From an uncultured Gammaproteobacteria bacterium (lineage in GTDB: Bacteria; Patescibacteriota; Microgenomatia; CAYXHB01): DNA of 54,454 bases. Of this stretch, positions 16,719 to 35,084 are shown piece by piece. Numbering within the stretch: the stretch's first letter is position 1; every line of letters starts with the position of its first letter. Under the pieces are notes generated by a model, which saw only the letters and a program-made list of their open reading frames with translations, ran no database searches and had not been told where the DNA came from. The stretch covers positions 1-54,454 of the forward strand of contig CAZLQM010000005.1 of NCBI GenBank assembly GCA_964561945.1. The letters are read 5' to 3'. The position numbers and the translations under genes were made by a program.

Positions 16719-16970
16719 TTAATAGTAGATTAGGAAGCTCAGCGGTGCAAGGGCGATTAGGGCAATTAAGAAATATTCAATGGCAACTCGTTTGAGGAAA
16801 ACAGGACTTGAACTATAGTGATCAAATATTCCCCAAGCTGTGTATGCAAATGCAAAAATAGTTAGTAAGGAAAGCTTGGCGGTTGGAGTATGCGCAAAAT
16901 TGATCATTACTGGAATAATGGTACAAAGTAGGAGTATGGAAAAGATGGTGGGTAGAAAATTTTTTTTCAT
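16719..16970 (-). CDS. Small three-TM membrane protein
   Basis: Hydrophobic, YTAWGIFDH...EYFLIA; ATGA-coupled to the upstream CAP gene. Confidence 0.7.
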   Translation of the reverse strand: MKKNFLPTIFSILLLCTIIPVMINFAHTPTAKLSLLTIFAFAYTAWGIFDHYSSSPVFLKRVAIEYFLIALIALAPLSFLIYY

Positions 16971-17812
16971 TTGGTTAATAGATAGCCAATGGCTGAACAA
17001 GAAATGAGAAATGTCATGTGCGCCCAGTATTTTGCACTTATACGAGGGATTTTTTTGTGGTGTTTAAGCAAAATAATATCAAGAGTGAGAATCAGCATAA
17101 GGGCGCCAATAGAAATAAAAGCAATCATTTGGGTGGAAAAAAATGAAAGATTGTGACTACCTTCAATTTGATTGGAAAGACTACCTGCGAGTTTAAAGAC
17201 TTCACTCTGGTCAACGGGATCCTGGCCAACAGTACTAATGCTACCTATTGGAGCGGGTGAGGCGAAAAACTGGACGATCAAGATAGTTGGTTTACCATCA
17301 ATCTGTCCTTCTCCGATCGCAACTCCAATGTCCGTGTATTCTGGCTTGAGAATATTTGCTTTATGTCCTTCGGATGCCATCCAAGCAGCGACCAAGTTCT
17401 CTGATGTAGTGAAATCTCGGCCTAAATTTTCACCAGCAAACTGATATGAATAACCGCTATCGAGAATGAATTTCCAAGGCGCTCTTTGGGAAGGAGAGTA
17501 ATGATTCCAGTAGTTAAACTCAAACATATCATTGAGTTTGAGTTGCGCAGCTTGAGACAGTTCTTGATTCATAGTTAGCGGAGCAAGTCCGATTGAAATT
17601 CGCTCTTGATTGGTGAGTTCGATAATCTTAATTGGAGTTAAGTCAGTACTTGCTCCTAAAACCTGTGTGGGGGATGGGCGAAAAATAAAGGATATAAATT
17701 GAAGTGCTATGACAGAAACCAATATTAAGGTCAAACTGAAATTGTGAAGAAGTTTTGCCTTGTAGTTGTTGGCTCGATTTGGTACAAATAAATTGGCTAG
17801 TTTTAATGGCAT
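16967..17812 (-). CDS. CAP/SCP domain membrane protein
   Basis: LTNQER, LSQAAQLK, YWNHYSP, AGENLG, WMASEGHKANIL. Confidence 0.92.
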   Translation of the reverse strand: MPLKLANLFVPNRANNYKAKLLHNFSLTLILVSVIALQFISFIFRPSPTQVLGASTDLTPIKIIELTNQERISIGLAPLTMNQELSQAAQLKLNDMFEFNYWNHYSPSQRAPWKFILDSGYSYQFAGENLGRDFTTSENLVAAWMASEGHKANILKPEYTDIGVAIGEGQIDGKPTILIVQFFASPAPIGSISTVGQDPVDQSEVFKLAGSLSNQIEGSHNLSFFSTQMIAFISIGALMLILTLDIILLKHHKKIPRISAKYWAHMTFLISCSAIGYLLTK

Positions 17813-18657: not shown

Positions 18658-21399
18658 TTAGTATGTTGGAGTGATGGTGTAAACGATATGTCCTGAGTAT
18701 GTATCTGTAGGCTGGAGAACATTCACTTCCAGAGCGTAAACAACGTCTGCCGTGGTGCCTGAATCAACACCAGATGAATACATAACAGGTCGCGGTGTGG
18801 TACTGAGTGGTCCAAATTTGGCCGATCCGCTACTCCAACCACTGACCCTAGTGTCTGATGTCCCTGCTCCGATCCAGCCAGTATTTACATTGCTAACTGT
18901 TCCATTGGGGGTACTCCAGGTAACAGGTGTAGTCCAACTAGCACCAAGTGCCGCAAATGGATCGATGAAATTAGAAGGATCTAAACCCTGAATTACAGAA
19001 GTACTTAACATATTGAGGAGGACGGTATACCCGCTAACTGAGTTAGTGGAGACGGATAATCGCTGAGCTATGTATTTTGGGGTGCCAACTGATATTGAAC
19101 CGAAGGGTAAAGATGTGATGGTACTAGATACAGAGGTGTTAATTCCATTAGCTAATGTGTTGGCCCCAATGGCTGAAATGGAGAAAGTAAGCGATGGGTC
19201 TTCCCAAGATCCAAATGTGCTATCTGATTGAAATCTGCCTGATTGATCACTTCCCCAGTATGCAATATTAGGAGCAAGGGAAAAATTAGACAGTCCCGTC
19301 AAACTGGCCCTAGTTGGGCCATCAATTTTGAGGCGCAAGGTGCCTGATGCTGAAGTGTAGTCTAATTCGATGAAATAAGATTGATTAGCCAAAATTGCTC
19401 CCGAAGCATCATAAGTGGTTGTAGAAACACTACCGTTACGAACGGTTCGTAAAGTTATGGTGTTGGCACTACTCCAATATAGTTGGATCGTGTCATTAGC
19501 AGATCTGTACCATTCTCCAATGTAAACATTAGTACTACTGTCAGATTGAAATGAAAGAGCAGAAGCTGCTGAATGTCTGGGTGTGTATTTAAATTTTATA
19601 TTACCAGCGGAAACTCCAAGTTGAGTTATCGGTTGGGTTACCGTATCCATACCATCGATTCGAATGCCTGAGGTTTCGGTAGAACTGGAGAGGGAAGCTG
19701 GAGTAACAGTAAGAGAGACATTGGTAAGGGGGATGAAATATAGATCATCAAGGTAGAAAGTTTGGCTATTGTTACTTAAATACTGGGCAGAGACAGAGCT
19801 ACTGGACGCTCTTACAACTCCGTGCAAGGGCTCCCAGTTATTAGTGCTTGAGGTAGTCAAAATCTGGGTTCCATCTTGAAGAGACTGATTAAGATCTACG
19901 CTATCGGTTACAGGATAGACATACCCTCCTAACGCGTAGAAATTGTCTGCAGTAGTAGTTATAGATCTGGTAACTCCCTCATCAAGTGCGTCGGTAATTA
20001 CTTCCCAACTATTACTGCCACTTCGAGATTGGGTAGTGGATTGAGATGAGCTAGTGGGAGTACCGACACTTGAAGGGGGTGTGCCACCTTCATAGGATGG
20101 GTCATTGTAGGAATTAGTTAAAAGCTCTACTGAGTGCCAGCTGCAAGTTCCACTTGAGGCAGTATTTAGTAAATTTACTCGCAAGGTTTTGGATCCTGAC
20201 CCCGTGATCTGGCCTGTAACTATTAATGCTGAAGGAGAAGTTCGACTAGTATTATTACTGCCGTCTATGTATCCAATGGAAAGGGATGAAGTTTGGTCGT
20301 ATAGTTGTAGTCTCGGAATGCAGTTAGCATCAGCGTGAACTATGGCTCGAGCGAGAAAATCGTCGCCTCCGTTAACTGTTACATCTTGATAGTAACCTTC
20401 ATTGGAAGCACTTGAAGTCCAGTAATAGCCTGATGCAAAAAGCTGATTTGGAGCACTCAACGAACCGTTGGCAGATGGCGTACCGATTTGGCTCCAATTA
20501 GTCCAAGCTGTAGCGTTGGTGAGGAACCCATTTGATAATAAATTATTTGCATGAGGATAAGTCCAAGCGTATCCTGTGCCACTAGACAATGAACCAACGT
20601 TTCCGTCTAAAGGTATTGCCATTACTACGTCAAAGGAACCTGTCACATTTGTTGGGTCACGACCACTACCGCCATTGTAAATTAAATTGATTTCATCACC
20701 GTTACCAATATTTATCCCGTTATTCCCATCGTATAAAACTCGACGATAAATAGTAAATCCTTCGATCAACCCAGAGATAGCTTCATCAGCACCATCGCTG
20801 CCTAAATAGAAACTAGTTGACGGCTGAGTGCTAGTTGGTTGGGTTGTAATACCACAACTATGAGAATCATTAATTGATAAACATGAATAGTTACTGCCGT
20901 TGATAAAATTATTAGTATCGTATCTGAGAACTATTGAATAAGAAGAGCCTGCACTAATAACTGAATCAATGGTCATTGACTGACCTCCCACTGTGATTGA
21001 ATATCTATCGTTAGCATAGTCGTAACCTAAGTTATAGTTCGAGTCTGCGTACCAAAGATAATTAATACCCGATGATAAATTGTTGGAACTATACTCCGGC
21101 GTCCAGAACAAAACGATTGATCCTTGGGATGAGTCAAATGTTTGATAGAAACTTCCTCCGATTTGGGAGCCGCGACCATAAGCTATAGAGTCATCGGTTA
21201 ATGTGTCTTGGTTGCTGGGTTCACCTTGGAGAAATACTCCAACAGCGAATGGACCTTGGCTGATTCTTTTGGCAATTGATGGAGTGAAAGTAAGGTCGCT
21301 AGGATTGATGGTTAATGAAGAAGCATGAATTGTTGACGTGAAGGAAATATTAAGAATGAAAAATACAATTAAAATCAGAATTTTGTGGGGATTTGCCAT
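18658..21399 (-). CDS. Large secreted Ser/Thr-rich beta-sandwich protein (LamG/CBM-like modules) with C-terminal domain shared with two paralogs
   Basis: Signal peptide (..IHA), LamG-like segments (GSIVLFWTP, FYLGSD, IAYWGSD), CBM-like FYLDD; C-terminal DPSLTF...VYTITPTY. Confidence 0.8.
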   Translation of the reverse strand: MANPHKILILIVFFILNISFTSTIHASSLTINPSDLTFTPSIAKRISQGPFAVGVFLQGEPSNQDTLTDDSIAYGRGSQIGGSFYQTFDSSQGSIVLFWTPEYSSNNLSSGINYLWYADSNYNLGYDYANDRYSITVGGQSMTIDSVISAGSSYSIVLRYDTNNFINGSNYSCLSINDSHSCGITTQPTSTQPSTSFYLGSDGADEAISGLIEGFTIYRRVLYDGNNGINIGNGDEINLIYNGGSGRDPTNVTGSFDVVMAIPLDGNVGSLSSGTGYAWTYPHANNLLSNGFLTNATAWTNWSQIGTPSANGSLSAPNQLFASGYYWTSSASNEGYYQDVTVNGGDDFLARAIVHADANCIPRLQLYDQTSSLSIGYIDGSNNTSRTSPSALIVTGQITGSGSKTLRVNLLNTASSGTCSWHSVELLTNSYNDPSYEGGTPPSSVGTPTSSSQSTTQSRSGSNSWEVITDALDEGVTRSITTTADNFYALGGYVYPVTDSVDLNQSLQDGTQILTTSSTNNWEPLHGVVRASSSSVSAQYLSNNSQTFYLDDLYFIPLTNVSLTVTPASLSSSTETSGIRIDGMDTVTQPITQLGVSAGNIKFKYTPRHSAASALSFQSDSSTNVYIGEWYRSANDTIQLYWSSANTITLRTVRNGSVSTTTYDASGAILANQSYFIELDYTSASGTLRLKIDGPTRASLTGLSNFSLAPNIAYWGSDQSGRFQSDSTFGSWEDPSLTFSISAIGANTLANGINTSVSSTITSLPFGSISVGTPKYIAQRLSVSTNSVSGYTVLLNMLSTSVIQGLDPSNFIDPFAALGASWTTPVTWSTPNGTVSNVNTGWIGAGTSDTRVSGWSSGSAKFGPLSTTPRPVMYSSGVDSGTTADVVYALEVNVLQPTDTYSGHIVYTITPTY

Positions 21400-21472: not shown

Positions 21473-22567
21473 TTAGTATGTAGCAGTGGCGGTATACACC
21501 AGTGTTCCACTATACACATCGGCAGGCTGGTAAACATTCACTTCGATTGCATAGTTTATGTAGACAGGATTGATGCCATTATCCGGTCCATTACTAAGCA
21601 TGACTGTATTATTGGTTAATTCAACTGGTCCGAATTCCGTAGGGTCAAACTGAGAAACATCGCTATCTGAAGTATAAGCACCGATCCAACCTGTATCAGT
21701 ATTTGGTACAGAACCAGTTGGTTCGGTCCAAGCTTTAGGGGTTGACCATGTAGTTCCTGGAGAAGCATATGGGTCAATGTTGTTAGATGTATAAGAACCT
21801 GTCATTTGACTGACCATCCGCATACTGACGGTATAACCTGAGTTGGAGTTGGTGGTAACGTTGAGTCTGTGGGCTGAATATTTGGGAGTTCCAGCGGTAA
21901 GATTGCCAAAAGGCAAGGTACTAATGGTAGAAGCAACGTTCGTGGTGACACCTCCAACGACAGTATTAATTCCAACAGGAGAAATAACAAAAGTGAATGA
22001 TGGATCTACCGTAGCACTTACAGTTACAGCTTGAACGACTGTATACATGACTGTAGTTTCATCAACTACTGCCGTATCCCAAGCACCTGTGGCTGTTGCA
22101 GATTGAATCTGGACAAAACAACTATCAGATGAAGTCTCAACATCGCAGTCTGCAATACCGCTATTGGTAATGGACTGGAGCGGAATCGTAACTACAGAAT
22201 TTACCAAATTCTGACCACCATTCGTATGTTGAAGGGTTATCAATCCTGATGGAGCATTTGAGGTGTTGATGGTCCAACCTGCGTCTAAATTAACAAGAGT
22301 TCCAATGCTAGTACTATTTAGAACTAATCCCGTCGGTTTGGCACTGCCAGAAGGCAAAGTGGAGAACTGAAAACGAATTTCGTTGATAGTAGCACTTGAA
22401 GGAACAGTAAATTGAAACGTATGGGTACTACTGACACCCGCACGAGGGTCAGAAATGAAATCTTTGGCACTTGAAAAAGTACCTGCCTCTACATTTTTGG
22501 CTAAGAAAAAAGGTAGGAAAGAAAATATAGCGATAAATAAAACAATGCGAGGCAGATGTAAACGCAT
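21473..22567 (-). CDS. Secreted two-domain beta protein, paralog B (putative pilin/surface subunit)
   Basis: Signal peptide (..VEA), full-length similarity to 28290..29408, ends YSGTLVYTATATY. Confidence 0.82.
   Translation of the reverse strand: MRLHLPRIVLFIAIFSFLPFFLAKNVEAGTFSSAKDFISDPRAGVSSTHTFQFTVPSSATINEIRFQFSTLPSGSAKPTGLVLNSTSIGTLVNLDAGWTINTSNAPSGLITLQHTNGGQNLVNSVVTIPLQSITNSGIADCDVETSSDSCFVQIQSATATGAWDTAVVDETTVMYTVVQAVTVSATVDPSFTFVISPVGINTVVGGVTTNVASTISTLPFGNLTAGTPKYSAHRLNVTTNSNSGYTVSMRMVSQMTGSYTSNNIDPYASPGTTWSTPKAWTEPTGSVPNTDTGWIGAYTSDSDVSQFDPTEFGPVELTNNTVMLSNGPDNGINPVYINYAIEVNVYQPADVYSGTLVYTATATY
21677..21733. repeat. 57-bp exact direct repeat, copy 1
   Basis: agcaccgatccaacctgtatcagtatttggtacagaaccagttggttcggtccaagc, identical to 28497-28553. 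Confidence 0.93.
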
Positions 22568-22638: not shown

Positions 22639-24291
22639 CTAAACAGTTGGAGGAGCTGAATTGTTTTGTAGACTTGCTTGATATTTGGGATATTTTTTTT
22701 GGAAATCTTGGATGAATTGATCGACTAATGGATCTAGGTCTTCGACTTTTTTACCTTCGAGCGCCATATGTTTGAAATTGTCATATCCGCCTTGGCGATA
22801 AAACTCAATTAATTCCTTTTTGAAATCGCTCATAATCTCAAGCTCTAGCGAATCAATTCGACCGGATGTAACTAAGATTAACAGAAGTATTTGTTCATCA
22901 GTAAATAAATTAAGCCCCGTAACTTGAGCAAACATTTCCAAAACTCGTTTACCTCGACGAATATCGCGAAGTGTGTCTTCGGAAACTTCAGTATTAATAG
23001 TTTCAAATGACTTAACCTCGTTATAACGCGCCATTTGACGACCACTAACTTCACCTAATTTACGCAGGATAGGGATCTGCACAGCTCCACCGATACGAGA
23101 AACTGACAGTCCTGAATTAACCGCTGGCATGATACCCTCATTCATCATGCCAGCATCGAGGAAAATGTGGCCATCAGTAATGGACATCAAATTAGTAATA
23201 ATATATTCAGAGACATCACCACCGATGGTTTGAGCCACAGGCAAAGCGGTCATGGAACCACCACCAAGTCGAGAATGGAGTTTGGAGGCTCGCTCGAGTA
23301 GGCGTGAATGAAGGAAGAAAATATCTCCAGGATAAGCATCTCGCCCTGGGGATCTCTTGAGTAGCAACGAAACTTGGCGGTAGGCTTTGGCTTGCTTGGA
23401 AAGGTCGTCGTAAACTATCAAGACGTGCTTGCCCCTGTACATAAAGAATTCAGCAATGGCAGCTCCTGCATAGGGGGACAGATACTGCATAGTAGGCGGA
23501 TCATCAGAGAAAGACATGACAACAGCCGTATGCTCTAATGCGCCCCTTTTTTTGAGAAGATTGACAACTTCCTTGGCCTTGGCAGTTTGCATCCCGACGC
23601 CAACATAAACACAAAGCACACCCCTGCCAATTTGGTTGCAAATGGCATCAACTACAACTCGAGTTTTACCTGTCTTACGATCTCCAATCACTAATTCACG
23701 CTGACCTTTACCGACAGGAATAGTAGCATCAATAACCATCAAACCCGTATTCATGGGATCTTTGATTGGCTCACGCATCATAATGGAAGGACCCGCAAAC
23801 TCAAGGGGGCGCATTTCCTCCGGCTCGATTTCTCCCAGCCCATCGATGGGAACACCCATGGGGTCAACCACTCTACCCAACGAGTTTGAACCCGTCGGGA
23901 CGAGGATCTTGTTGCCAGTAGAAACAGCTTGGTCCCCACGTTTGACTTGAGTGTAGTCACCTAAAACCACTGTCTCTACTAAGCCTTTGTCAATTCCCAA
24001 AACTAGCGACGGGACAAGTCCGCCCTCGGTTTTGATATTGATCACTTCTTCTATCTTTGCATCATCGATACCACTAATTTTGACCACAGCATCACCTACA
24101 TACTGGACCTGACCAATTTGGGAGATTGTTTCTCCTTTGGAATTTTGGGGGAAAGTAAAGTCTAAGACATCACTAAATTCAAACTCATCATCCACCTCTT
24201 GAGGGGGAGGAACTAAATCAATATCAACACCTTTGATGGATGAATTGGAGTTGTTGAGAAATTCTTCTAGTTTGCGTAGTTGTTTGGCCAT
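22639..24291 (-). CDS. atpA: F-type ATPase subunit alpha (divergent, acidic N-terminal extension)
   Basis: GKGQRELVIGDRKTGKT, YDDLSKQA, RDAYPGDIFFLHSRLLERA, SITDGHIFL, Arg finger SVSRIGG. Confidence 0.96.
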   Translation of the reverse strand: MAKQLRKLEEFLNNSNSSIKGVDIDLVPPPQEVDDEFEFSDVLDFTFPQNSKGETISQIGQVQYVGDAVVKISGIDDAKIEEVINIKTEGGLVPSLVLGIDKGLVETVVLGDYTQVKRGDQAVSTGNKILVPTGSNSLGRVVDPMGVPIDGLGEIEPEEMRPLEFAGPSIMMREPIKDPMNTGLMVIDATIPVGKGQRELVIGDRKTGKTRVVVDAICNQIGRGVLCVYVGVGMQTAKAKEVVNLLKKRGALEHTAVVMSFSDDPPTMQYLSPYAGAAIAEFFMYRGKHVLIVYDDLSKQAKAYRQVSLLLKRSPGRDAYPGDIFFLHSRLLERASKLHSRLGGGSMTALPVAQTIGGDVSEYIITNLMSITDGHIFLDAGMMNEGIMPAVNSGLSVSRIGGAVQIPILRKLGEVSGRQMARYNEVKSFETINTEVSEDTLRDIRRGKRVLEMFAQVTGLNLFTDEQILLLILVTSGRIDSLELEIMSDFKKELIEFYRQGGYDNFKHMALEGKKVEDLDPLVDQFIQDFQKKYPKYQASLQNNSAPPTV

Positions 24292-24303: not shown

Positions 24304-24888
24304 TTAATTAGATTCTTGAGTAAGCAAATCATTAGTAGAGATAAGACTATCAATCCATTTTTTTTGGAATCTCTCAAGCTTGGCTTTGAGACTGTAATCA
24401 AAAACATAATTACCAACCCGAACTTGAGCTCCGCCAAGAATGGCGGGATTTACTACATGGCTGATGACGGCATGTTTCTTGAGGAGGGTGGCAAATAGTT
24501 TACCAATTTTGCGAAGTTCATCGTCTTCAAGGTCAATCGAGGTACTAATATAAACTATTTCAATATTGTCTGCTTCAAGTTGGAAACTTTTAACGAAGGT
24601 GTCAAAATGATCAAATTTATGTGAATCGAACAACCAGAATTGATAGGCTTCAAACATTGAAGTGAAGAATTGATTAACTTGAGGCAAGTTGATTTTGGCA
24701 ATTAATCTGATAAGTTCGCGGGATTTTTGGGCATCGTTAAGGTTGTCATCAGTAACAACATCGTACATACGTTGCTTGAATTGGTGGTTAGCGCTTAATG
24801 ATTCAAGTAAAAGTGATACCCGCTTGAGATCGCGACTAGTATACAAACTATTAATCAAACTTTGAGCTGCCAGTTGGACTTGGTTCAT
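24304..24888 (-). CDS. atpH: F-type ATPase subunit delta
   Basis: C-terminal VNPAILGGAQVRVGNYVFDYSLKAKL; position between b and alpha. Confidence 0.88.
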   Translation of the reverse strand: MNQVQLAAQSLINSLYTSRDLKRVSLLLESLSANHQFKQRMYDVVTDDNLNDAQKSRELIRLIAKINLPQVNQFFTSMFEAYQFWLFDSHKFDHFDTFVKSFQLEADNIEIVYISTSIDLEDDELRKIGKLFATLLKKHAVISHVVNPAILGGAQVRVGNYVFDYSLKAKLERFQKKWIDSLISTNDLLTQESN

Positions 24889-24894
24889 AGAAGA

Positions 24895-25413
24895 TTACAT
24901 TTTGATTTTTTGGGATTTGACCTCGTCAAGCGATTTGTAAATCAGGTCAACATGATCCTGACGTGTGAGTGTCGTGCCCATGACTTTTTCGGTGACATTG
25001 ATAACTAATTTGACTAAATCTGATTCAACTTCATGCAGTCGTTCTTTGCGATAATCGTCCAAGTCATGAGTTGCGTGCATGCGGATAGCCTCGGCTTCAT
25101 CTCTAGACTTTTTGATAATAAGTTCAGCTTCGGCACGAGCGTCTTCGATGGTTTTTTGGTATTGGACTGCGATTTCTTTGTCCATCTCAACAGCCACTTG
25201 TTGCATGATGCTCATGGCTGCCATGACTTTGGAGATTTTCTGGTGCTGACGTTTGTGGACACTTTGTTTGTGGAGATCTAGCTGAAGTTTGGATTGTTGG
25301 AGGAATTTCTCCAGTTCTTGCTCATGAATCCGAGTTCGACGCCAAAAGAAAACTACGAGAAGCAAAATGTAAACGGCGGTGATTGCAGTATATATCAACC
25401 AAATATCATCCAT
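24895..25413 (-). CDS. atpF: F-type ATPase subunit b-like stator protein
   Basis: N-terminal TM, long coiled coil (IEDARAEAELII), C-terminal LVINVTEKVM...DHVDLI. Confidence 0.78.
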   Translation of the reverse strand: MDDIWLIYTAITAVYILLLVVFFWRRTRIHEQELEKFLQQSKLQLDLHKQSVHKRQHQKISKVMAAMSIMQQVAVEMDKEIAVQYQKTIEDARAEAELIIKKSRDEAEAIRMHATHDLDDYRKERLHEVESDLVKLVINVTEKVMGTTLTRQDHVDLIYKSLDEVKSQKIKM

Positions 25414-25452
25414 AGGCAGGAAATAGCAGACTTAATTAGTCTACCCTATTAA

Positions 25453-27483
25453 TTATCTTACAATAAATACAGCCGCCGCAACCGCCATCCCTGCAGCAGT
25501 TACAAATGCAAAAATACTGGCGTACAAATTAAGTTGCAATTTGCCCTTGGCATAGGGATTACGACCAATGGCTTCAAGCCCTCGACTGGCCATAATACCA
25601 CCGCCAACACTGGCACCTAAAATACCAAACCCTGCGGCAAGACCTGCGCCAATGTAACGCAAGACGGAGAACCTATCCAGTCCTTGGGTTTTGAATAATT
25701 GCGATATCAATGCAGCAGAGTCCGAAGCCCCTTTGACTCCACCTGCACCTGATCCACCACCTCCGTTGGGATTGATATCTTTGAGTTTGGGATCGCCTTG
25801 AACTTCGAAGATGTTACTAACCCCTACCATTCCATCACCTGCCACGCTGATGACAACTTCTGGATCGGCGAGTGAAATTATCCCTTGGACATACCACAAG
25901 CCTTCTGCCGAAGGGCTAGCAACAGCAGGATTAAGTGTCCCAGTTGTGTCGCTTAATGCAATTGGTCCAGTGTAATCGGTAACTTGCTCATTTAGCGAAT
26001 TCTTAGCCGCGATTGAAATCAGGAAAGGCTGACCTACTGTTTGAGGGCTTTGGATGTCTTCAATTACTAGCCGGCGGTTTAATCCTGTGCCAACGCTACC
26101 AACAATTCGAGCGGTTTTGGCGACACTACCTTGATTGGCGGTTATAGTCACCGTGCCAATGCCATTATCGGACGCGGTAAGAAGCACAGTGTTCCCTGCA
26201 GCTTGACTCAAGACTCCCAAATCACCTGTGACTTCGAATTGGTAATTAACACCTGTAACAGGGTTCCCATAGATATCAACTCCTTGGGCTGTAATGGGAA
26301 TAGTTGCACCACGCAAGGCTGCAATTATTTCTGGGTCAATATTGACTGAATTAAGTACGCCTGCTGCGGGAGTGGGGCTGATGGCTAAGGTTGGAGTAGG
26401 GGTAGGGGTTGGTGGAATGGGAGTGGGGGTATTGGTGGGAGCAAGAGTTGGGGTCGGTGTAGGAGTACCTGCCCATGAACCAACGCCACCTGTTTCAATA
26501 ACTGTAACTGAAGCAGTTGAGCCGACACTACCCGACTGGACTCTGACGGTGTTAAGGAAAGTATTGGCAGTTGTGCCTGCAAAGAAAATCCCAGTTGAGT
26601 CTATAGTGCCTCCTCCATTAACGACGCTCCAAGTTGGTGAGGGAACCGTGACTTCGTTGTAATACATATCATAACCAACTACGCTAAAGGGGAAATAATT
26701 AGCAATCGGAACAGTAGCCCATATGGGAAGAATGGAAAGTGAAACCAAACTTGCAGGGATAGCTGTTTCGTAGAAAGTAGCAGCATTCGTAATCCCGCTG
26801 GCAAGTGTAGCCGTGACAATATAAGAACCTTTCTTGCGACCCAGAGTCAGACTGGTTGAAGCATATCCCGAGATATTGGAATTACTTGCAAGTAGATTAA
26901 GCTGTTGAGTGCTAGCTCCTGGTGGATAGCTAGTAATAGCCCAGTTAACCCCGACGTTATTGAGAGGATTGCCGTATGGATCAACAACTCTAACGGTAAG
27001 TGGTGTGGTGAGAGTCGTGTTTACTAATGCGTTTTGGTTATTGCCTGCTGTGATAGTCAGGAATTTGATGCGACTATCAGCTTGGACGGTAAATGGAGTT
27101 GATGTGGCAACTACTGATCCCGAAGATACGACTATTTGTGTATTGGTCGTGGCTTGGGGAATGTAAACAGTGCCTCGCCAAATACCTGATTGAAAACTGC
27201 CAGAATTGCTAGGGACAATTGTACTGGTGTTGTCCCAAATTGAAACATTGCCTGTAAAATTAACTTCAATTTGATTGCTGGCATCACGTGCATAGATGGT
27301 TAGGTAGAAAGGTACGCCTGCAATTTTGGTACCTGAAGTAAAATCATCAAAGGTAAAGTGATCTAGCGCCGCAAAGGTGGAGGAAGTGAAATGCAAAAAG
27401 AAAAACCCTAAAGATCCAAGAAAAAGAAAAATATTGAAGATATATTTGGTTACTGGTATTAAGACACCCTTTTTGTCTATCAT
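25453..27483 (-). CDS. Secreted Ig-repeat protein fused to a C-terminal ATP synthase subunit c-like hairpin lacking the ion-binding carboxylate
   Basis: Signal/TM, about five Ig-like modules (VVDPYGNP, GYDMYYNE, GVDIYGNP), PT linker, then IGAGLAAGFGILGASVGGGIMASRGLEAIGRNP...; sits at the atpE position before atpF-atpH-atpA. Confidence 0.85.
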   Translation of the reverse strand: MIDKKGVLIPVTKYIFNIFLFLGSLGFFFLHFTSSTFAALDHFTFDDFTSGTKIAGVPFYLTIYARDASNQIEVNFTGNVSIWDNTSTIVPSNSGSFQSGIWRGTVYIPQATTNTQIVVSSGSVVATSTPFTVQADSRIKFLTITAGNNQNALVNTTLTTPLTVRVVDPYGNPLNNVGVNWAITSYPPGASTQQLNLLASNSNISGYASTSLTLGRKKGSYIVTATLASGITNAATFYETAIPASLVSLSILPIWATVPIANYFPFSVVGYDMYYNEVTVPSPTWSVVNGGGTIDSTGIFFAGTTANTFLNTVRVQSGSVGSTASVTVIETGGVGSWAGTPTPTPTLAPTNTPTPIPPTPTPTPTLAISPTPAAGVLNSVNIDPEIIAALRGATIPITAQGVDIYGNPVTGVNYQFEVTGDLGVLSQAAGNTVLLTASDNGIGTVTITANQGSVAKTARIVGSVGTGLNRRLVIEDIQSPQTVGQPFLISIAAKNSLNEQVTDYTGPIALSDTTGTLNPAVASPSAEGLWYVQGIISLADPEVVISVAGDGMVGVSNIFEVQGDPKLKDINPNGGGGSGAGGVKGASDSAALISQLFKTQGLDRFSVLRYIGAGLAAGFGILGASVGGGIMASRGLEAIGRNPYAKGKLQLNLYASIFAFVTAAGMAVAAAVFIVR
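26368..26470 (-). repeat. Pro/Thr low-complexity linker
   Basis: GTPTPTPTLAPTNTPTPIPPTPTPTPTLAISPTP. Confidence 0.85.
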
Positions 27484-27531
27484 GATAATACAACTGTACA
27501 CTAATTAGAGCGTATCCAACAGTATTTTAAT

Positions 27532-28104
27532 ATGAATGACACTGCCCAGATAGTCAATCGATTTGTAGACGATAATCACAAAATCGATAAGGAAAAATTA
27601 CGTTTATTTGTGAATCAAAAACTCAGCTCTCAACTAGCTTGGGTAACATATTGGCTACATGGAACTGCCCATTTGCATAATTGGAATCGGCTGGCTGATT
27701 TTATCGCTAGCCATGATCGGGATCCCAAAAGCCAAAATTGGCAAAAAGGCTTGGATCAAATCATGGGACTGCCTGCGACCATCCGTGGGTGGAATAGTGA
27801 TCACTGCGAGAGCATCGAACGCCTTGAGTTTTCGATAGCATCCAAAGCTGCAGAATTAGCAACAGGCGATGATAATCAAGATTACTATACGGCTCTAACT
27901 ATCAGGCATGATCAGCTGCTTGCATGCACCCAAGTGATGGATACAGCGATTGAAAACTTGGGACAATTAGTCAAATTAGATAACATGGAAGAAATGATCC
28001 AGAGCGAGCCATTTGGGTGGTTCATGAATAAAGACATTGATACATATATTTACGAAAGCGCTCGGGAAGTCTACGAATTGAGAAATAAATTAACGGAAAA
28101 TTAA
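27532..28104 (+). CDS. Hypothetical soluble, probably helical protein, opposite strand within the ATPase locus
   Basis: 190-aa ORF with no competing ORF; no family recognised. Confidence 0.7.
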   Translation: MNDTAQIVNRFVDDNHKIDKEKLRLFVNQKLSSQLAWVTYWLHGTAHLHNWNRLADFIASHDRDPKSQNWQKGLDQIMGLPATIRGWNSDHCESIERLEFSIASKAAELATGDDNQDYYTALTIRHDQLLACTQVMDTAIENLGQLVKLDNMEEMIQSEPFGWFMNKDIDTYIYESAREVYELRNKLTEN

Positions 28105-28289: not shown

Positions 28290-29408
28290 CTAGTAAGTTG
28301 GAGTAGCCGTGTACACGAGTGTACCTGTATAGACGTCAGCTGGCTGATAAACGTTAGCTTCGATTGCGTAAGCAACGTGAACACCAGTAATACCATTATC
28401 TGAGGTAGTAGATCTCATGACGTTATTATTCGTATTATTAACAGGACCAAAGGTCGCTGGAGTTACGAATTGAGTTAAATCGGCATCTGTTGAGAGAGCA
28501 CCGATCCAACCTGTATCAGTATTTGGTACAGAACCAGTTGGTTCGGTCCAAGCAGTTGGGGTCGCCCAAGTGGTGCTTGGAGCTGCGTATGGATCAATGT
28601 TGTTACTTGCATATGTTCCAGTCATTGGTGTTTCCATGCGCATAGTCACGGTATAGCCCGAATTGGCGTTAGTGGTGACATTAAGTCTGTGTGCGGCATA
28701 CTTTGGAGTGCCAGCAGTCAAATTACCAAAAGGCAATGTGGTGACTGTTGAAGCAACTGTTGTTGTGACTCCTCCAATTGCAGTACTGGCTCCGACGGGA
28801 CTAATCACAAAGGTGAATGTCGGGTCGACAGTCGCACTGACAGTAACGGCTTGAATTACAGTGTATGTGGTAGTGGTTGCATCTACGACAGATGTGTCCC
28901 ATGCTCCAACAGCAGTAGATGTTTGAATACGCACGAAACAAGTATCAGAAGATGCTGTTCCGGCGTCACAGTCTGTAATACCGCTGTTGGTAATCGTCTG
29001 GAAAGGAATAGTAACGATTGCACCGTTAAGATCCTGACCGGCACCAGTGTGTTGGACACTAAGTAATCCTGATGGGGCATTTGTTGTGTTGAGAGTCCAG
29101 GCACCGTCCATATTTGATAAAGCTCCTAAGGTAGCATTTTCTAAATTCAAACCAGTTGGTTTGGAATTACCAGTTGCGGTTGTTGCAAATTGAAAACGGA
29201 TTGATTTCAATGTACCAGCAGAAGGAACTGTAAACTGAAAAGTATGAGTACTAGAAGTACCTACACGAGGATCTGAAAGTGTGTCTTTGGCACCAGCAAG
29301 ATATGCAGCGTCGACAGGTCGAACTGCAAAAAACAATCCTAGTGTGAAAACATGTACGATCAGTCCGAGTGATAGGACTAAACTTAGAAATTTGCGAGCA
29401 GTTTGCAT
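28290..29408 (-). CDS. Secreted Thr-rich two-domain beta protein, paralog A (putative major pilin/surface subunit)
   Basis: Signal peptide (..VDA), Cys pair DCD...TCF, ends YTGTLVYTATPTY; strong SD GGAGGTG. Confidence 0.85.
   Translation of the reverse strand: MQTARKFLSLVLSLGLIVHVFTLGLFFAVRPVDAAYLAGAKDTLSDPRVGTSSTHTFQFTVPSAGTLKSIRFQFATTATGNSKPTGLNLENATLGALSNMDGAWTLNTTNAPSGLLSVQHTGAGQDLNGAIVTIPFQTITNSGITDCDAGTASSDTCFVRIQTSTAVGAWDTSVVDATTTTYTVIQAVTVSATVDPTFTFVISPVGASTAIGGVTTTVASTVTTLPFGNLTAGTPKYAAHRLNVTTNANSGYTVTMRMETPMTGTYASNNIDPYAAPSTTWATPTAWTEPTGSVPNTDTGWIGALSTDADLTQFVTPATFGPVNNTNNNVMRSTTSDNGITGVHVAYAIEANVYQPADVYTGTLVYTATPTY
28497..28553. repeat. 57-bp exact direct repeat, copy 2
   Basis: Identical to 21677-21733. 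Confidence 0.93.
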
Positions 29409-29467: not shown

Positions 29468-29497
29468 ATAGTAAGGATACTTTTGCATAGATGTCAA
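29468..29497 (-). promoter_or_regulatory. Sigma70-type promoter TTGACA-N18-TACTAT for paralog A
   Basis: -35 at 29497-29492, -10 at 29473-29468. Confidence 0.72.
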
Positions 29498-29509: not shown

Positions 29510-29785
29510 TCATTTTTGCTTTGTATCGGTATCTTCATCAAATCCTACTATGACGGTAACTTGATTTTGTGAGGCTCGGATGATCCCGCCATCAATAGGG
29601 ATTTTTTCAATATCTCCTTGGGCATAAATCTCAATATCCCCTTTGGCAAGTTGAGTGTAGAAGGGAGTGTGGTCCGGCAGGATGGCAATCTCGCCTTGAG
29701 GGCCTGGCGCCATCACTCGCTCAACCTCACCTTCAAAGACTGTATCGTCAGGCGTAGTAATTACAAGTTGGAGGGAAGAAGCCAT
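29510..29785 (-). CDS. atpC: F-type ATPase subunit epsilon, N-terminal beta-sandwich domain only
   Basis: LVITTPD..FEGEV..V.APG.QGEIAILPDHTP, IDGG; no C-terminal helical hairpin. Confidence 0.9.
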   Translation of the reverse strand: MASSLQLVITTPDDTVFEGEVERVMAPGPQGEIAILPDHTPFYTQLAKGDIEIYAQGDIEKIPIDGGIIRASQNQVTVIVGFDEDTDTKQK

Positions 29786-29797
29786 ATTAATAATTGT

Positions 29798-31291
<1,494 letters not shown>

Positions 31292-31324: not shown

Positions 31325-32197
31325 CTAATCGGCATCTGACCACAAAGCTCGACCTGCTTGAACTTCTTGAATTTTCTTATCAATTAATTTGCGACGTTCT
31401 TTGTTATATTGCAGTTGCAAATCTTTGAGCAGATCTTTGGCGTTATCTGTAGCTGTTTGCATGGCAATCATTTGTGAGGCATAGAGAGCGAGCTTAGATT
31501 CGAGAATTTGTTGACGGAAAAGAGCATAACGCAACTTGGCTGAAACATTATCGATTAATGTATCAATCGCTGGTTCAAAGATAAACTTGGTTTTGGCCTT
31601 AAGATCAGTTGATTGATCAACGGCATTTTCGGGAACTGTCAACTCCTCGAAAACAATTTCACGAACAATTGGATTGATATATTTGGAATAAACTAAATTG
31701 ATTTTGTCATAACGAGGAAACATCCGAATTAGAGATTGAAGATGTTTGATTTCTAAAAATTCAGGGATGTTATAAGGAAAAAACTTGACTCCATATTTGC
31801 GAACTAGTCTACGAAAATATTCCTGACCTTTGGTACCAAGTACAAAGTAATCTGCTTCTTTGTTTTGGGGAACAATAGTGTCAAGCTTTTTGAAAATCTC
31901 ATTATTGTATGAACCACACAAACCTTGATTTGAAGTTATTACAATAATGGCGTGTTTATTAGTCGACATTTTGTAATTGCGAATTACTTTTTGCATTTCT
32001 TGCTGAGTGGCTCGGCGTTGTTCAACACGAAGCTCACGCAAAATAGCAGTTGTTTCATCCACGAACCTACGACTCTTGAGCACGACCTTGCGCAAAGACG
32101 CCATGCGAGAAGCTGAAATTTGTTGTAAGCTGTTGGCAAAATCACCTACAGATTTAACGACGGTTTTTTGCTCTTTGATTTCATTGATCTTGGCCAT
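31325..32197 (-). CDS. atpG: F-type ATPase subunit gamma
   Basis: MAKINEIK, ITSNQGLCGSYN, FEP, MIAMQTATDNA, YNKERR...IQEV. Confidence 0.93.
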   Translation of the reverse strand: MAKINEIKEQKTVVKSVGDFANSLQQISASRMASLRKVVLKSRRFVDETTAILRELRVEQRRATQQEMQKVIRNYKMSTNKHAIIVITSNQGLCGSYNNEIFKKLDTIVPQNKEADYFVLGTKGQEYFRRLVRKYGVKFFPYNIPEFLEIKHLQSLIRMFPRYDKINLVYSKYINPIVREIVFEELTVPENAVDQSTDLKAKTKFIFEPAIDTLIDNVSAKLRYALFRQQILESKLALYASQMIAMQTATDNAKDLLKDLQLQYNKERRKLIDKKIQEVQAGRALWSDAD

Positions 32198-33695
32198 TTG
32201 TATTTACAAGATACAGGATTGCAGACCCTGACTGCCAGATGGGTTGTAGAAATTGGTAGTTAGGAAGCTGATGATTGGCTATTGCATCTTCCTCAGTTCC
32301 ACAATAAACGAGTGTAATCTGATGTGATGATAAGTATTGTATAGCTTGAGTAGAATTAAATTTTCCTGTGTAAAATGGATATAAATTATCAATTTCCCTC
32401 CCAGAATTGGGGCTTAAGTAAGGATGACCAACAACGACATGATGATCGGTGTATGCCGGGGTTAAATTGGAAGCTTGAACAGCACTAAGAACCACAGTTG
32501 GCGTTTGGGTTTGGAGAAATTGTAAATAGCTATCAAATCGATCTGAATAGAAAGATAGTGGACTGGGGTGGCGGATAATTTGCACAGGGATGGCGATCAT
32601 TCCTATGATGGAAATTGCGATTAGAGCAAAATAGAAACGTCGCGGTAGATGGGCAAGAGAAGGAATCGCAAGCAAGGCAAACGGAATCCATAAGCCCCTG
32701 ATCATAAGACGTTGATAATCAAAAGGTAAATAAATAATAGTGGCTTGAACGAAGAACCAGATAATAAGGAAATTAGAAGCTTTGCGTCTAATAGAAAGAA
32801 ATACAAAAGGGATTAATAGAGCAAAAGATAATAGGAAATATCCAATGGGTGGCGAAGGATGAGGTGCTAGGATTAATCCTTGGGTACTGGGTGAATGATT
32901 TACTGGAAGCGCGATAAAGAAATAAACAAGGATCGAAATAATTGTAAATAAAACAAAGGGCTGCAATTGAAAATATGAGAACTTGTGCTGGATGATTAAA
33001 AACAATTGATAAGTTGCCATGATGGCAATCATGGGAATTATCATAAAGCCGTGAATTAGACTGGTGATAAAAAATCCCAAGCAGGATAGGAGAAGAAAGC
33101 GTTTGTGTGGAGTTGATACAAATCTGTAATATGCACAGATTGTGAGGAGGAAAGTAGCCAAGCTCAAGCCATCATGTGGGGTACGCCAAGCGCTGTATAA
33201 TGTGACGTGGGGAATGGTGAAGTCTGGTAATTGCAGATGAAATAAATAGAAGAAAACCCAACCTAGCCCACTGCCTAAGGTGATGAGAATAAAAGATAAT
33301 TTGGTAAATCGCGGATTAAAAATATTTACCGCCCAATAGCAAATTAATAACAGAATAAAAGAAGTAAAAATTCCTAACAGGTGAAACAATAACCATGGTG
33401 AAATAGGTAGCCATTGGAAAATAAAGCCAGACAAAGTATAAAACAAATATACTGGCAATCTTGCTTGGGATTGGAAGTCATATTGATTAAGATAAAGCAA
33501 ATTCCCCGCCAATCCTTGGCGCAAAGCAGAGACATAAACGGGCAAATCAATACCGTCTAGCCATGATGCATGACCTGCGAAGTTAACACCTGTTGGCGTA
33601 TTTAGATAAACGTAGAGATCTGGACCTCTGGCAATAAGATTAACGAGGAGAAAAATTAACCAGAAATACTTTGGTAATTTGATAAATTGAATCAT
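32181..33695 (-). CDS. Polytopic membrane protein, putative GT-C glycosyltransferase
   Basis: More than 10 TM segments, luminal loop DLPVYVSALRQG, soluble C-terminal domain; overlaps atpG start by 17 nt. Confidence 0.6.
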   Translation of the reverse strand: MIQFIKLPKYFWLIFLLVNLIARGPDLYVYLNTPTGVNFAGHASWLDGIDLPVYVSALRQGLAGNLLYLNQYDFQSQARLPVYLFYTLSGFIFQWLPISPWLLFHLLGIFTSFILLLICYWAVNIFNPRFTKLSFILITLGSGLGWVFFYLFHLQLPDFTIPHVTLYSAWRTPHDGLSLATFLLTICAYYRFVSTPHKRFLLLSCLGFFITSLIHGFMIIPMIAIMATYQLFLIIQHKFSYFQLQPFVLFTIISILVYFFIALPVNHSPSTQGLILAPHPSPPIGYFLLSFALLIPFVFLSIRRKASNFLIIWFFVQATIIYLPFDYQRLMIRGLWIPFALLAIPSLAHLPRRFYFALIAISIIGMIAIPVQIIRHPSPLSFYSDRFDSYLQFLQTQTPTVVLSAVQASNLTPAYTDHHVVVGHPYLSPNSGREIDNLYPFYTGKFNSTQAIQYLSSHQITLVYCGTEEDAIANHQLPNYQFLQPIWQSGSAILYLVNTNGQDQ

Positions 33696-33698
33696 GAT

Positions 33699-35084
33699 TT
33701 ATGATTGGAAATTCGGATTGCGAAGCAAAACAACAAATTTATCTTGGTAAATAATTGACCAACGTTCTACTTCAATTAAATTACGAGTTAGCGGATACTC
33801 GTGGTTGAGCAGTGCATAGTCAAAATTGTATGAATGAAATAATTGACGTGAGTTAGGCAAACTATAAATCATAGTCTGATAATCACGGAAAGGGACAAGG
33901 TTCTGTGTTTGCCAGAGAGTCATGCGGCCATCGATAAATACTGGCATTTGTGGATATTGATAGATCAGATGTCCCCCAAGACGATACGCATTGAATAGTT
34001 TGCCTACAATGTGGTTTTGATTAATGAAATCAATAGCTCCTTGTGAACAGTGAATTTCACTAGCACAATAGGTTTGCCAATTTTGATTTGTAATAGTTTC
34101 GAATCTATAAATCAAAATTAATACAGATATTGCTAATGAAGAAAAAATAACAGCCGTTGATTGGGAATATTTGGATGGAAATTGCTTAGCTAAATATCTA
34201 GAAATTATTGGGAGTGAAAAGATAACAACGTAGGGAATCATGCGACGGGAGGTTAATGCCAAGACACTTAGGAGTAGCATAACAATTAAGTCACTTAATC
34301 TCGATTTGCGATCTTGGTACAGAAGCCATGTAGAGAAAATTATTGAAATGTATAGCCCAAAGGTTCGCAATCCCCATGGCCAAGGTTGCCATTCAGTTAC
34401 TCCTTGAAGTAGCGGATTACCGATGTAACTTAATATATCCAAGTGCAGTCGGTAGCCCCAAGGATTAACAAATGTAACTAACAAGCTAGCTAATACTATT
34501 ACGAAAAAGTGTTGGTTAATTTTTTTATGTTTAATTGAATCCACGATGAAGTAAATTGCGACGACGCACAAACCAAACAAAAACTGACCATGGAGATTGG
34601 ACCAGAGGAAGAAAATTAAAGGAAGGAGAAAGTGATATTTAGTTTGTTTTAAGTCTATAATTTTAATAATTAAAGCAAACATTAGTAAACTTATATAATG
34701 ACTTTTCAGTCCCGTGGATAAAAGTGGCGATGCAAGATACCAACCAAATGGCAAGATTAATAAAGAATAAAGAGTGGGCTGAAGCATGATTGCAAAACTA
34801 ATGCCAATCAATAGACCACCAAAAAATGAGACGGTTGGAAATTGTCCAATTTTATTAATTAAAGCGACGATAATATCGTACATCCATGAATGATTTATCC
34901 ATTGGTAATCTGTCATGGTGTATGAAAAAACATTGGCTCTAAGAATTTGATAGTTGTTTAGGAAATACTCTCCGTATCGCAAATGCCAGCCTAAGTCTGC
35001 GTCTGATACAGGATAGAGAAAAAGAGCCGATGCCATGATTAGTATTACAATACGAAAGAGGAGAGTTCGTGAAATATGGATCAT
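33699..35084 (-). CDS. Polytopic membrane protein, putative GT-C glycosyltransferase
   Basis: DADLGWHLRYGE, WINHSW, LWSNLHGQF, TEW, VFIDGR motifs. Confidence 0.68.
   Translation of the reverse strand: MIHISRTLLFRIVILIMASALFLYPVSDADLGWHLRYGEYFLNNYQILRANVFSYTMTDYQWINHSWMYDIIVALINKIGQFPTVSFFGGLLIGISFAIMLQPTLYSLLILPFGWYLASPLLSTGLKSHYISLLMFALIIKIIDLKQTKYHFLLPLIFFLWSNLHGQFLFGLCVVAIYFIVDSIKHKKINQHFFVIVLASLLVTFVNPWGYRLHLDILSYIGNPLLQGVTEWQPWPWGLRTFGLYISIIFSTWLLYQDRKSRLSDLIVMLLLSVLALTSRRMIPYVVIFSLPIISRYLAKQFPSKYSQSTAVIFSSLAISVLILIYRFETITNQNWQTYCASEIHCSQGAIDFINQNHIVGKLFNAYRLGGHLIYQYPQMPVFIDGRMTLWQTQNLVPFRDYQTMIYSLPNSRQLFHSYNFDYALLNHEYPLTRNLIEVERWSIIYQDKFVVLLRNPNFQS

Follow-up and report, generated by a model that had tools for sequence, protein, structure and literature searches.

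An accessory F-type ATPase gene set of Patescibacteria with a carboxylate-free subunit c-type hairpin fused to an Ig-like ectodomain

Rotary ATPases are textbook ion-coupled energy converters. What does a subunit c-type protein do that has no ion-binding carboxylate and bears a large ectodomain at its N-terminus? This question is raised by a gene on contig CAZLQM010000005.1 (assembly GCA_964561945.1), a stretch of 54,454 nucleotides (nt) that was analyzed at its full length and is called the window here. The window is an entire contig of a 1.10-megabase (Mb) Patescibacteriota genome that is 96% complete. The gene, which we named ecto-c, sits in the atpE slot directly before a gene for a b-like stalk subunit, as the first-pass annotation of the window had recognized. 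That annotation proposed that the protein forms an ion-blind rotor. The carboxylate-free, c-type nature of the hairpin was upheld by our analysis; as a statement about the cell's own ATP synthase the proposal failed, since the genome has a complete canonical operon on another contig. We consider it reasonably likely that ecto-c is the membrane subunit of an accessory F-type ATPase specific to the candidate phyla radiation (CPR), which would have lost its ion path and would hydrolyze ATP to act on a surface structure.

The fused protein and its relatives

The open reading frame (ORF) of ecto-c proved to be open as annotated, with 676 amino acids (aa) from an ATG at 27483, and the stretches quoted for the hairpin all lie in its last 74 aa. 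A GTG start gives 682 aa. The gene and its parts are listed below in window coordinates.

25453..27501, minus strand: fused c-like gene ecto-c, encoding a signal peptide, an immunoglobulin (Ig)-like ectodomain and a C-terminal subunit c-type hairpin
27370..27453, minus strand: N-terminal hydrophobic helix, a Sec signal peptide or transmembrane segment (AlphaFold2 helix 11-32 of the 676-aa form)
25786..27372, minus strand: ectodomain of five beta-sandwich modules A, Big_1, B, B' and A' (Pfam, AlphaFold2, hhalign)
26374-26487, minus strand: Pro/Thr (PT) linker between modules B and B', disordered in the AlphaFold2 model
25675..25767, minus strand: Gly-rich linker and short helix before the hairpin (predicted local distance difference test, pLDDT, <50 at residues 573-603; helix 589-599)
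25456..25677, minus strand: subunit c-type hairpin with Gly-rich helix 1, loop RGLEAIGRNPYAK and a helix 2 that lacks acidic residues

The AlphaFold2 model of ecto-c was built on an alignment of 82 sequences and reached a mean pLDDT of 83.8. It revealed, in this order, an N-terminal helix, five confident beta modules with the disordered Pro/Thr linker, the Gly-rich linker and two terminal helices. Pfam assigned Big_1 to residues 154-242 (E 8.7e-9). The layout is palindromic: module 1 resembles module 5 (hhalign probability 98.9%, E 3e-17) and module 3 resembles module 4 (96.3%, E 1.6e-9). Only profile comparison revealed these repeats, and a BLAST self-comparison of ecto-c found none. AlphaFold2, hhalign and Pfam are therefore in agreement with the module order that had been proposed from the sequence (A, Big_1, B, PT linker, B, A, Gly linker). 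Searched as a whole against the PDB with Foldseek, the model gave generic Ig, S-layer and cadherin matches only. The signal peptide is predicted to be cleaved after ...STFA.

We then asked whether the C-terminal hairpin belongs to subunit c. The Pfam model PF00137 (ATP-synt_C) matches, over profile positions 1-38 of 60, with 25.1 bits in the whole protein and with 26.7 bits in the last 74 aa, above its cut-off of 24. Using phmmer, the last 74 aa matched 37 PDB sequences at E<=10, of which 36 are F-type c subunits, and the best match was 7wem_A (E 1.6e-6). These matches corroborate the subunit c likeness noted at first sight. In the AlphaFold2 model the hairpin helices span residues 605-639 and 646-675 (pLDDT 67-81). 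Aligned by phmmer with the c subunit of Bacillus PS3, ecto-c keeps five of the six glycines of helix 1 and has a Thr in the carboxylate column. When ecto-c is compared without gaps to the canonical c subunit of its genome, a Val falls in this column, in agreement with the earlier assignment of V or T to the D61-equivalent position. No Asp or Glu follows the GRNP loop in ecto-c, as had been read from helix 2. A complex prediction with four copies of the hairpin scored 0.02 and bears neither way on a ring.

The fusion is widespread. With the C-terminal region as query, 86 protein clusters were found to share the ecto-c architecture (392-818 aa, most of about 650 aa). Many of them have Big_1 and/or PF00137, and some are named "ATP synthase F0 subunit C [Candidatus Beckwithbacteria]" or stem from a Microgenomates genome. 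Relatives are encoded at 27 genomic loci, and these include giant versions of 1,000 to 2,590 aa from Saccharimonadales and CPR3 records, with about 30% identity and the same loop. A short type, of which the genome itself encodes a 264-aa member, comprises 65 clusters, and its ectodomain recurs as a module inside giant ORFs. In the protein homologue search no longer proteins homologous to the hairpin appeared at E<=0.01; the giant versions were found by genome scans. Searched against 1.84 billion representatives, the hairpin gave 156 phmmer matches at E<=0.001, which are a mix of fused forms, canonical c subunits and multi-hairpin proteins and not a clean family count. Of 401 sampled genomes of the phylum, 11 have a fused c of the Ig or giant type (G000, which is the genome holding the window, G285, G317, G079 with two copies, G028, G364, G055, G009, G383, G005 and G108). 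A full-length short-type match was found in at least 54 and is commoner than the Ig type. As G000 is counted in both tallies, at least 64 distinct genomes carry one or the other, which bears out the suggestion of the first-pass annotation that CPR proteins ending in an EAIGRNP hairpin may be widespread.

None of the 86 Ig-type relatives has an Asp or Glu after the GRNP loop, none of the 65 short-type relatives has one at +10 to +28 after the loop, and in eight giant or distant versions no helix-2 carboxylate was seen by eye. The GRNP loop itself is present in 86 of 86 Ig-type and 65 of 65 short-type relatives, and this part, which touches gamma/epsilon in F1Fo, is the best conserved in all three fused-c types. 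Helix 1 of the short-type family lacks the Gly-rich motif. The predicted short-type hairpin superposes on solved c subunits with a root-mean-square deviation (rmsd) of 1.2-1.8 A over 66-72 residues (for 9itt_I 1.2 A over 67 residues, TM 0.88).

The fusion is not an assembly artefact, because 86 clusters and 27 loci show the same architecture and because a contig of a second sequencing run spans 24514-25990, across the junction of hairpin and ectodomain, without differences. In total, ecto-c is covered by contigs of three DNA runs of one study, one of which may be the source of the assembly, and the contigs of other runs contain no joints or indels inside the ORF. An RNA run of another study yielded two 151-nt contigs at 27097-27427, too little for a claim about expression. 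Among the 27 loci, the contigs of L006, L007, L010-L012, L014-L017, L019, L021, L029 and L030 are titled 'uncultured Pseudomonadales' or 'Gammaproteobacteria'. Since their gene content and closest relatives are those of Patescibacteria, these titles are probably automatic mislabels of Patescibacteria contigs.

Three F-type gene sets in one genome

The genome contains three F-type gene sets. Set 1, on contig C17, is a complete canonical operon (a, c, b, delta, alpha, gamma, beta, epsilon). Its subunit a scores 151 bits, and even at E<=10 PF00119 matches nothing else in the genome. Its c subunit of 72 aa reaches 73.8 bits over the full profile, has a Glu at +18 after the loop and shares the EAIGRNP loop motif with ecto-c. 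Given this operon with its subunit a and its Glu-bearing c, ecto-c is part of a paralogous accessory set and not the rotor of the cell's ATP synthase. The canonical delta (C17:13988-14311) is short, with 107 aa compared to 194 aa of the full-length accessory delta. Short CPR delta subunits are linked to extra peripheral stalks in a 2026 preprint.

Set 2 is that of the window. The genes for ecto-c, b-like subunit, delta and alpha form one string and those for gamma, beta and epsilon another one upstream; no subunit a was found in the window. The genes that accompany ecto-c are the following.

24895..25413, minus strand: accessory b-like stalk subunit, one N-terminal transmembrane helix and a coiled coil (NCBIfam subunit B models E 1.3e-7, below cut-offs)
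24304..24888, minus strand: accessory delta (OSCP), full length with 194 aa (PF00213 E 5.9e-16)
22639..24291, minus strand: accessory alpha, 550 aa with an N-terminal extension of about 50 aa (TIGR00962 521.7 bits, cut-off 484)
31325..32197, minus strand: accessory gamma, upstream here and after alpha in relatives
29798..31282, minus strand: accessory beta (TIGR01039 604 bits, cut-off 463)
29510..29785, minus strand: accessory epsilon, 91 aa, N-terminal beta-sandwich only, C-terminal helical domain missing (matches positions 1-86 of 130-136-aa profiles)
27532..28104, plus strand: divergently transcribed cytoplasmic protein of 190 aa, upstream of ecto-c in 17 of 27 loci

Accessory alpha and beta thus exceed the equivalog cut-offs of NCBIfam atpA and atpD. 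The catalytic machinery is preserved: alpha keeps the P-loop and the SVSR arginine, and in beta the P-loop, the catalytic glutamate of GERTREG and Walker B are all intact. Epsilon is truncated in both accessory sets (91 aa in set 2 and 80 aa in set 3, compared to 153 aa in the canonical operon). The 190-aa protein, possibly a regulator or an assembly factor, had no match in Pfam, NCBIfam or Atlas.

Set 3 is split over C54:1610-3592 and C38:70-4128, two pieces that presumably form one set. On C54 the 264-aa c-like protein is followed by b-like and delta-like genes, and C38 contains alpha, gamma, beta and the 80-aa epsilon. The 264-aa protein consists of a signal peptide, an ectodomain of about 165 aa and a carboxylate-free c-like hairpin with VEAIGRNPLAK. 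Its ectodomain is weakly like the C-terminal domain of phage phi29 gp12 and capsid-decoration domains (E about 2e-4, TM about 0.5).

The accessory set is conserved as a unit. Where contigs allow, the 27 loci have the order fused-c, b, delta, alpha, gamma, beta, epsilon. Clustering recovered b, beside the fused gene, in 21 of them, delta in 20, alpha/beta in 17, gamma in 16 and the 190-aa protein in 17; misses in these counts are not evidence of absence, because many loci end inside the operon. Every ATPase gene adjoining the fused gene matched set 2 of the window best, and no ORF at the 27 loci matched subunit a. All carrier genomes examined also have a canonical operon. The ten carriers other than the genome of the window have a single subunit a apiece; in all ten it lies beside the canonical beta, far from the fused gene or on a different contig. 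A maximum-likelihood tree of 25 beta subunits, rooted on the three alpha subunits of this genome, recovered the 19 accessory beta subunits as a single clade (SH-aLRT, an approximate likelihood ratio test, 100) and left the 6 canonical ones outside. Three subclades within the accessory clade track the three fused-c types. At the Saccharimonadia-type locus L027 the fused protein has 2,571 aa, with NHL-like and Ig-like repeats recognized by eye. Between this giant gene and b lie three genes (L027:12981-16616) that, judged by eye from the translations only, encode an FN3 membrane protein, an ABC ATPase and an FtsX-like permease; thereafter b, delta, alpha, gamma, beta and an 86-aa epsilon follow.

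Pilin-like neighbors

The neighborhood reading of the first-pass annotation was right about the atpE slot and overlooked that pilin-like genes are interleaved with the ATPase genes. Three genes for secreted proteins are concerned.

28290..29408, minus strand: secreted Pam-pilin-like protein of 372 aa (NF058581 positions 4-148 of 148, E 1.3e-8, 34.5 bits)
21473..22567, minus strand: secreted Pam-pilin-like paralogue of 364 aa (NF058581 23.7 bits)
18658..21399, minus strand: secreted protein of 913 aa (NF058581 E 0.095, weak, 12.3 bits; jackhmmer E 3.3e-86)

These are the only three matches of NF058581, the model of CPR Pam pilins, in the whole genome (28293-28742, 21476-21922 and, weakly, 18661-19113). 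The C-terminal region of about 380 aa of the 913-aa protein aligns with both pilin-like proteins, and all three align with each other and with operon neighbors in L011 and L023. All are on the same strand as the ATPase genes: the 372-aa gene starts 101 base pairs (bp) downstream of epsilon, the 364-aa gene 71 bp downstream of alpha, and the 913-aa gene 73 bp beyond the 364-aa one. Of the sigma-70-like matches in the region, the best (10 of 12 positions, window 29468-29497, minus strand) is located between epsilon and the 372-aa pilin-like gene, which may have its own promoter; as a whole, the scan for promoters and terminators yielded fewer sites than were found in shuffled sequence. The ectodomain of ecto-c was also considered as a pilin-type domain, a candidate that was dropped, as its five modules compared to the pilin-like proteins gave an hhalign probability of <1%.

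A comparable arrangement was seen in other genomes. In G285 and G317 the distance between a pilin-like gene and accessory beta is 1.2-1.6 kilobases (kb), in G079 such a gene is 5 kb away from a short-type beta, and 4 of 11 loci that include epsilon and at least 2 kb beyond contain one. In the 401-genome sample, matches to the Pam model reached E<=0.001 in 118 genomes and exceeded the cut-off in 33; the unpublished genome G154 is part of both counts. The 118 include 10 of the 11 genomes with an Ig-type or giant fused c, and G285 misses at E 0.0012. Furthermore, in 8 genomes (G218, G305, G370, G109, G131, G344, G087 and G151) a full-length short-type gene is found 1.3-6.9 kb from an above-cut-off Pam match on the same contig. 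The usual gap, about 6.5 kb, corresponds to the length of the genes from b to epsilon. These co-location counts describe a pattern and are not a statistic, because related genomes are not independent.

Other genes lie close by. Just downstream of the 913-aa gene, window 16967-17812 (minus strand) encodes a secreted CAP-domain protein (cysteine-rich secretory protein family). Among the genes at 38954-43071 (plus strand) and 32181-35084 (minus strand), near the operon, are two side-by-side genes for TMEM260-like protein O-mannosyltransferases and two large multi-pass membrane proteins that have no family match. A 689-aa protein of this multi-pass/mannosyltransferase region has a homologue in 11 of the 27 related loci. 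With O-mannosyltransferase genes this near, the Pro/Thr linker of ecto-c may be a substrate for O-glycosylation.

Possible working and known systems

How might the accessory complex work? We propose that ecto-c would be exported via its signal peptide and that the c-type hairpin would reside in the membrane with the EAIGRNP loop on the cytoplasmic side. By homology with F1Fo, this loop would dock the gamma/epsilon foot of the accessory F1 (alpha3beta3), which would be held by its own b and delta stalk. Torque or tension from ATP hydrolysis would then reach the outer Ig-like ectodomains through hairpins that form a ring or a cluster, and the output might be anchoring, assembly or turning of a Pam-like surface pilus. 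Since neither a subunit a nor a membrane carboxylate is encoded in the accessory set, ion coupling by this set would be excluded on present knowledge, and the output would have to be mechanical, via the ectodomain. In bacterial F1, the C-terminal helices of epsilon inhibit ATP hydrolysis. The intact catalytic site of beta, together with an epsilon that lacks this inhibitory domain, makes it most likely that the complex hydrolyzes ATP. The pilus is suggested as output by the Pam-type pilin-like genes in the same gene strings. We infer ring formation, rotation, catalytic direction and the functional link to the pilus. In its most specific form, a carboxylate-free c-ring with Ig-like arms would be spun by its own F1 and would turn, wind or assemble a donor-strand-exchange (Pam-type) pilus. 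Such an ATP-driven rotary surface motor is possible, and we regard it as rather doubtful.

Several observations weigh against an accessory ATPase that acts on a pilus. The PF00137 match to ecto-c spans profile positions 1-38 of 60, hence helix 1 and the loop only, and the best NCBIfam subunit C model gives 30 bits compared to a cut-off of 71. There is no subunit a, and b has one transmembrane helix with a 3-residue tail outside; how the stator holds against torque is the weakest point of the rotary model. The pilin-like neighbors are covered over the full length of NF058581, and their 34.5, 23.7 and 12.3 bits are all below its cut-off of 55. The Pam match of G009 and G383 is found on another contig or some 90 kb off, 7 of the 11 loci with at least 2 kb past epsilon have no pilin-like gene within the available sequence, and no ectodomain module is like the pilin-like proteins by hhalign (probability <1%). 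The beta tree is the product of a quick LG+G4 search in which long branches were flagged, and some of its rows come from the same genome, including one identical pair.

Among the alternatives, an origin of the fusion by frameshift or misassembly of two genes has practically no chance of being true, given 86 clusters and 27 loci of this architecture and contigs of other runs that bridge the junction and show no indel in the ORF. It is extremely improbable that ecto-c is the organism's own c subunit, and hence an ion-blind rotor in the cell's ATP synthase: its atpE slot before a b-like gene and the missing subunit a in the window would fit, but the operon on C17 supplies both a subunit a (151 bits) and a 72-aa, Glu-bearing c (73.8 bits). 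A few copies of the fused protein might instead enter the canonical c-ring, either for display of an adhesin or for an altered ion/ATP ratio. The common EAIGRNP loop of ecto-c and the canonical c and the canonical operon in every carrier genome examined speak for this, yet b, delta, alpha, gamma, beta and epsilon genes of its own always come after the fused gene, accessory beta is a separate clade and the canonical operon lies on another contig or at a distance. We therefore deem it very unlikely.

More weight has to be given to the view that the hairpin, inherited from subunit c, serves an adhesin as a two-helix membrane anchor. F1 might bind the loop while nothing rotates, and ATP hydrolysis would serve regulation, assembly or extraction, comparable to FliI/FliH/FliJ in export. 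This would account for a complex in which, without subunit a, no stator anchor is obvious, for a short-type family that lacks the Gly-rich helix 1, and for ectodomains of about 190 to about 2,500 aa, for which the inner helices of a tight ring leave little room. A mere anchor would not be expected to retain and co-conserve full-length gamma, epsilon, b and delta, to keep the gamma/epsilon-contact loop invariant (GRNP in 86 of 86 and 65 of 65), or to preserve five of the six Bacillus PS3 glycine positions in helix 1. An anchor of this kind seems unlikely to us, and the preferred reading is still that of an ATP-hydrolyzing accessory ATPase that acts on a surface structure.

The accessory set keeps F1, the central stalk, the peripheral stalk and a rotor-type subunit, and the ion path is replaced by a surface-protein cargo. 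Should the complex turn, it would illustrate a way to power a surface structure with cytoplasmic ATP in bacteria without an outer membrane. A rotary surface motor, if true, would join the flagellum and the archaellum as another kind of rotary surface machine of prokaryotes. It would provide a mechanism for the "ATP synthase genes" that accompany Pam pili in CPR bacteria and pili in Omnitrophota and have been unexplained. Public records label the subunits "ATP synthase F0 subunit C", atpA and atpD, and consequently metabolic reconstructions of CPR bacteria can count a machine that does not conserve energy as an ATP synthase.

Among the closest known systems is the bacterial F1Fo subunit c (AtpE, PF00137) of the atpBEFHAGDC operon, with which ecto-c shares the hairpin fold, the Gly-rich helix 1, the R-N-P cytoplasmic loop and the place before atpF. 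Different from F1Fo, the ecto-c set has neither carboxylate nor subunit a, its epsilon lacks the C-terminal domain, it is a second copy beside the canonical operon, and the N-terminus of its c-type protein bears a 600-aa ectodomain and a signal peptide. The N-ATPase is likewise a second, laterally spread F-type operon. It keeps subunit a and an ion-binding c, however, and the window subunits are below the alt_F1F0 cut-offs for alpha, beta, gamma and epsilon (459.9 vs 750.5; 504.4 vs 752).

That ATP synthase genes lie beside pili of CPR bacteria and Omnitrophota is already in print; the fusion itself is not, as far as the accessible literature goes. No published description of a fusion of c-hairpin and surface protein was found in this literature, the coverage of which comprises papers and not the supplements of the Troman, Seymour and rotary-ATPase studies. 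The Pam pili of a Saccharimonadia bacterium have been solved, and ATP synthase genes were found consistently beside the pam operon (Troman et al., bioRxiv 10.64898/2026.03.03.709456). In the accessible text, these authors read the ATPase genes as a link to ATP production, propose no trans-envelope machine and do not use the words subunit c, F-type or rotary. The three secreted neighbors in the window match the pilin C-domain model of this system over its full length, below the cut-off. In Omnitrophota, a 'symbiotic' non-respiratory F-type ATPase is encoded beside type-4a pili, and its beta clusters with Saccharimonadia beta (Seymour 2023, PMC10066038); the accessible text speaks neither of subunit a nor of a c subunit or c-ring. 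As in the window, a second F-type ATPase is co-located with pilus genes, but the partner there is a type-4a pilus and here Pam-like pilins, and the two systems are likened by description. The methods of a 2026 preprint on rotary ATPase evolution, and in its accessible part only these, mention "unusual genomic neighbourhoods of beta homologs from CPR".

A counterpart in architecture comes from mycoplasmas. Their Type 2/3 F1-like X0 ATPases have surface functions, namely gliding and MIB-MIP antibody cleavage (Beven 2012, PMC3369863; Berlureau 2026, PMC12994834). According to the accessible text of the latter study, the X0 cluster protein MMCAP2_0577 has an N-terminal signal peptide, globular domains outside and two C-terminal transmembrane helices, and the two-helix protein co-purifies with F1-like subunits; the terms c-ring, c subunit and rotor are absent from this main text. 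MMCAP2_0577 and ecto-c have the same architecture, likened by description and not by sequence. Both systems are extra, non-respiratory F1-like ATPases linked to the surface of host-dependent bacteria with small genomes. The mycoplasma clusters differ in having a 12-transmembrane-helix protein and neither b nor delta, whereas b and delta are conserved here and no 12-helix protein is among the conserved neighbors of the ecto-c loci. Compared to the mycoplasma families MSC_0619/0618 and MMOB1660/1670, the window subunits are below the cut-offs (alpha 273 vs 520 and beta 406.7 vs 570 bits; also 358 vs 600 and 420 vs 850). If our reading is true, ecto-c would offer a recognizable c-type relative for the X0 sector of these gliding and antibody-cleaving machines, and a rotary surface motor of this kind would be the CPR counterpart, possibly an evolutionary intermediate, of the mycoplasma F1-like X0 machines.

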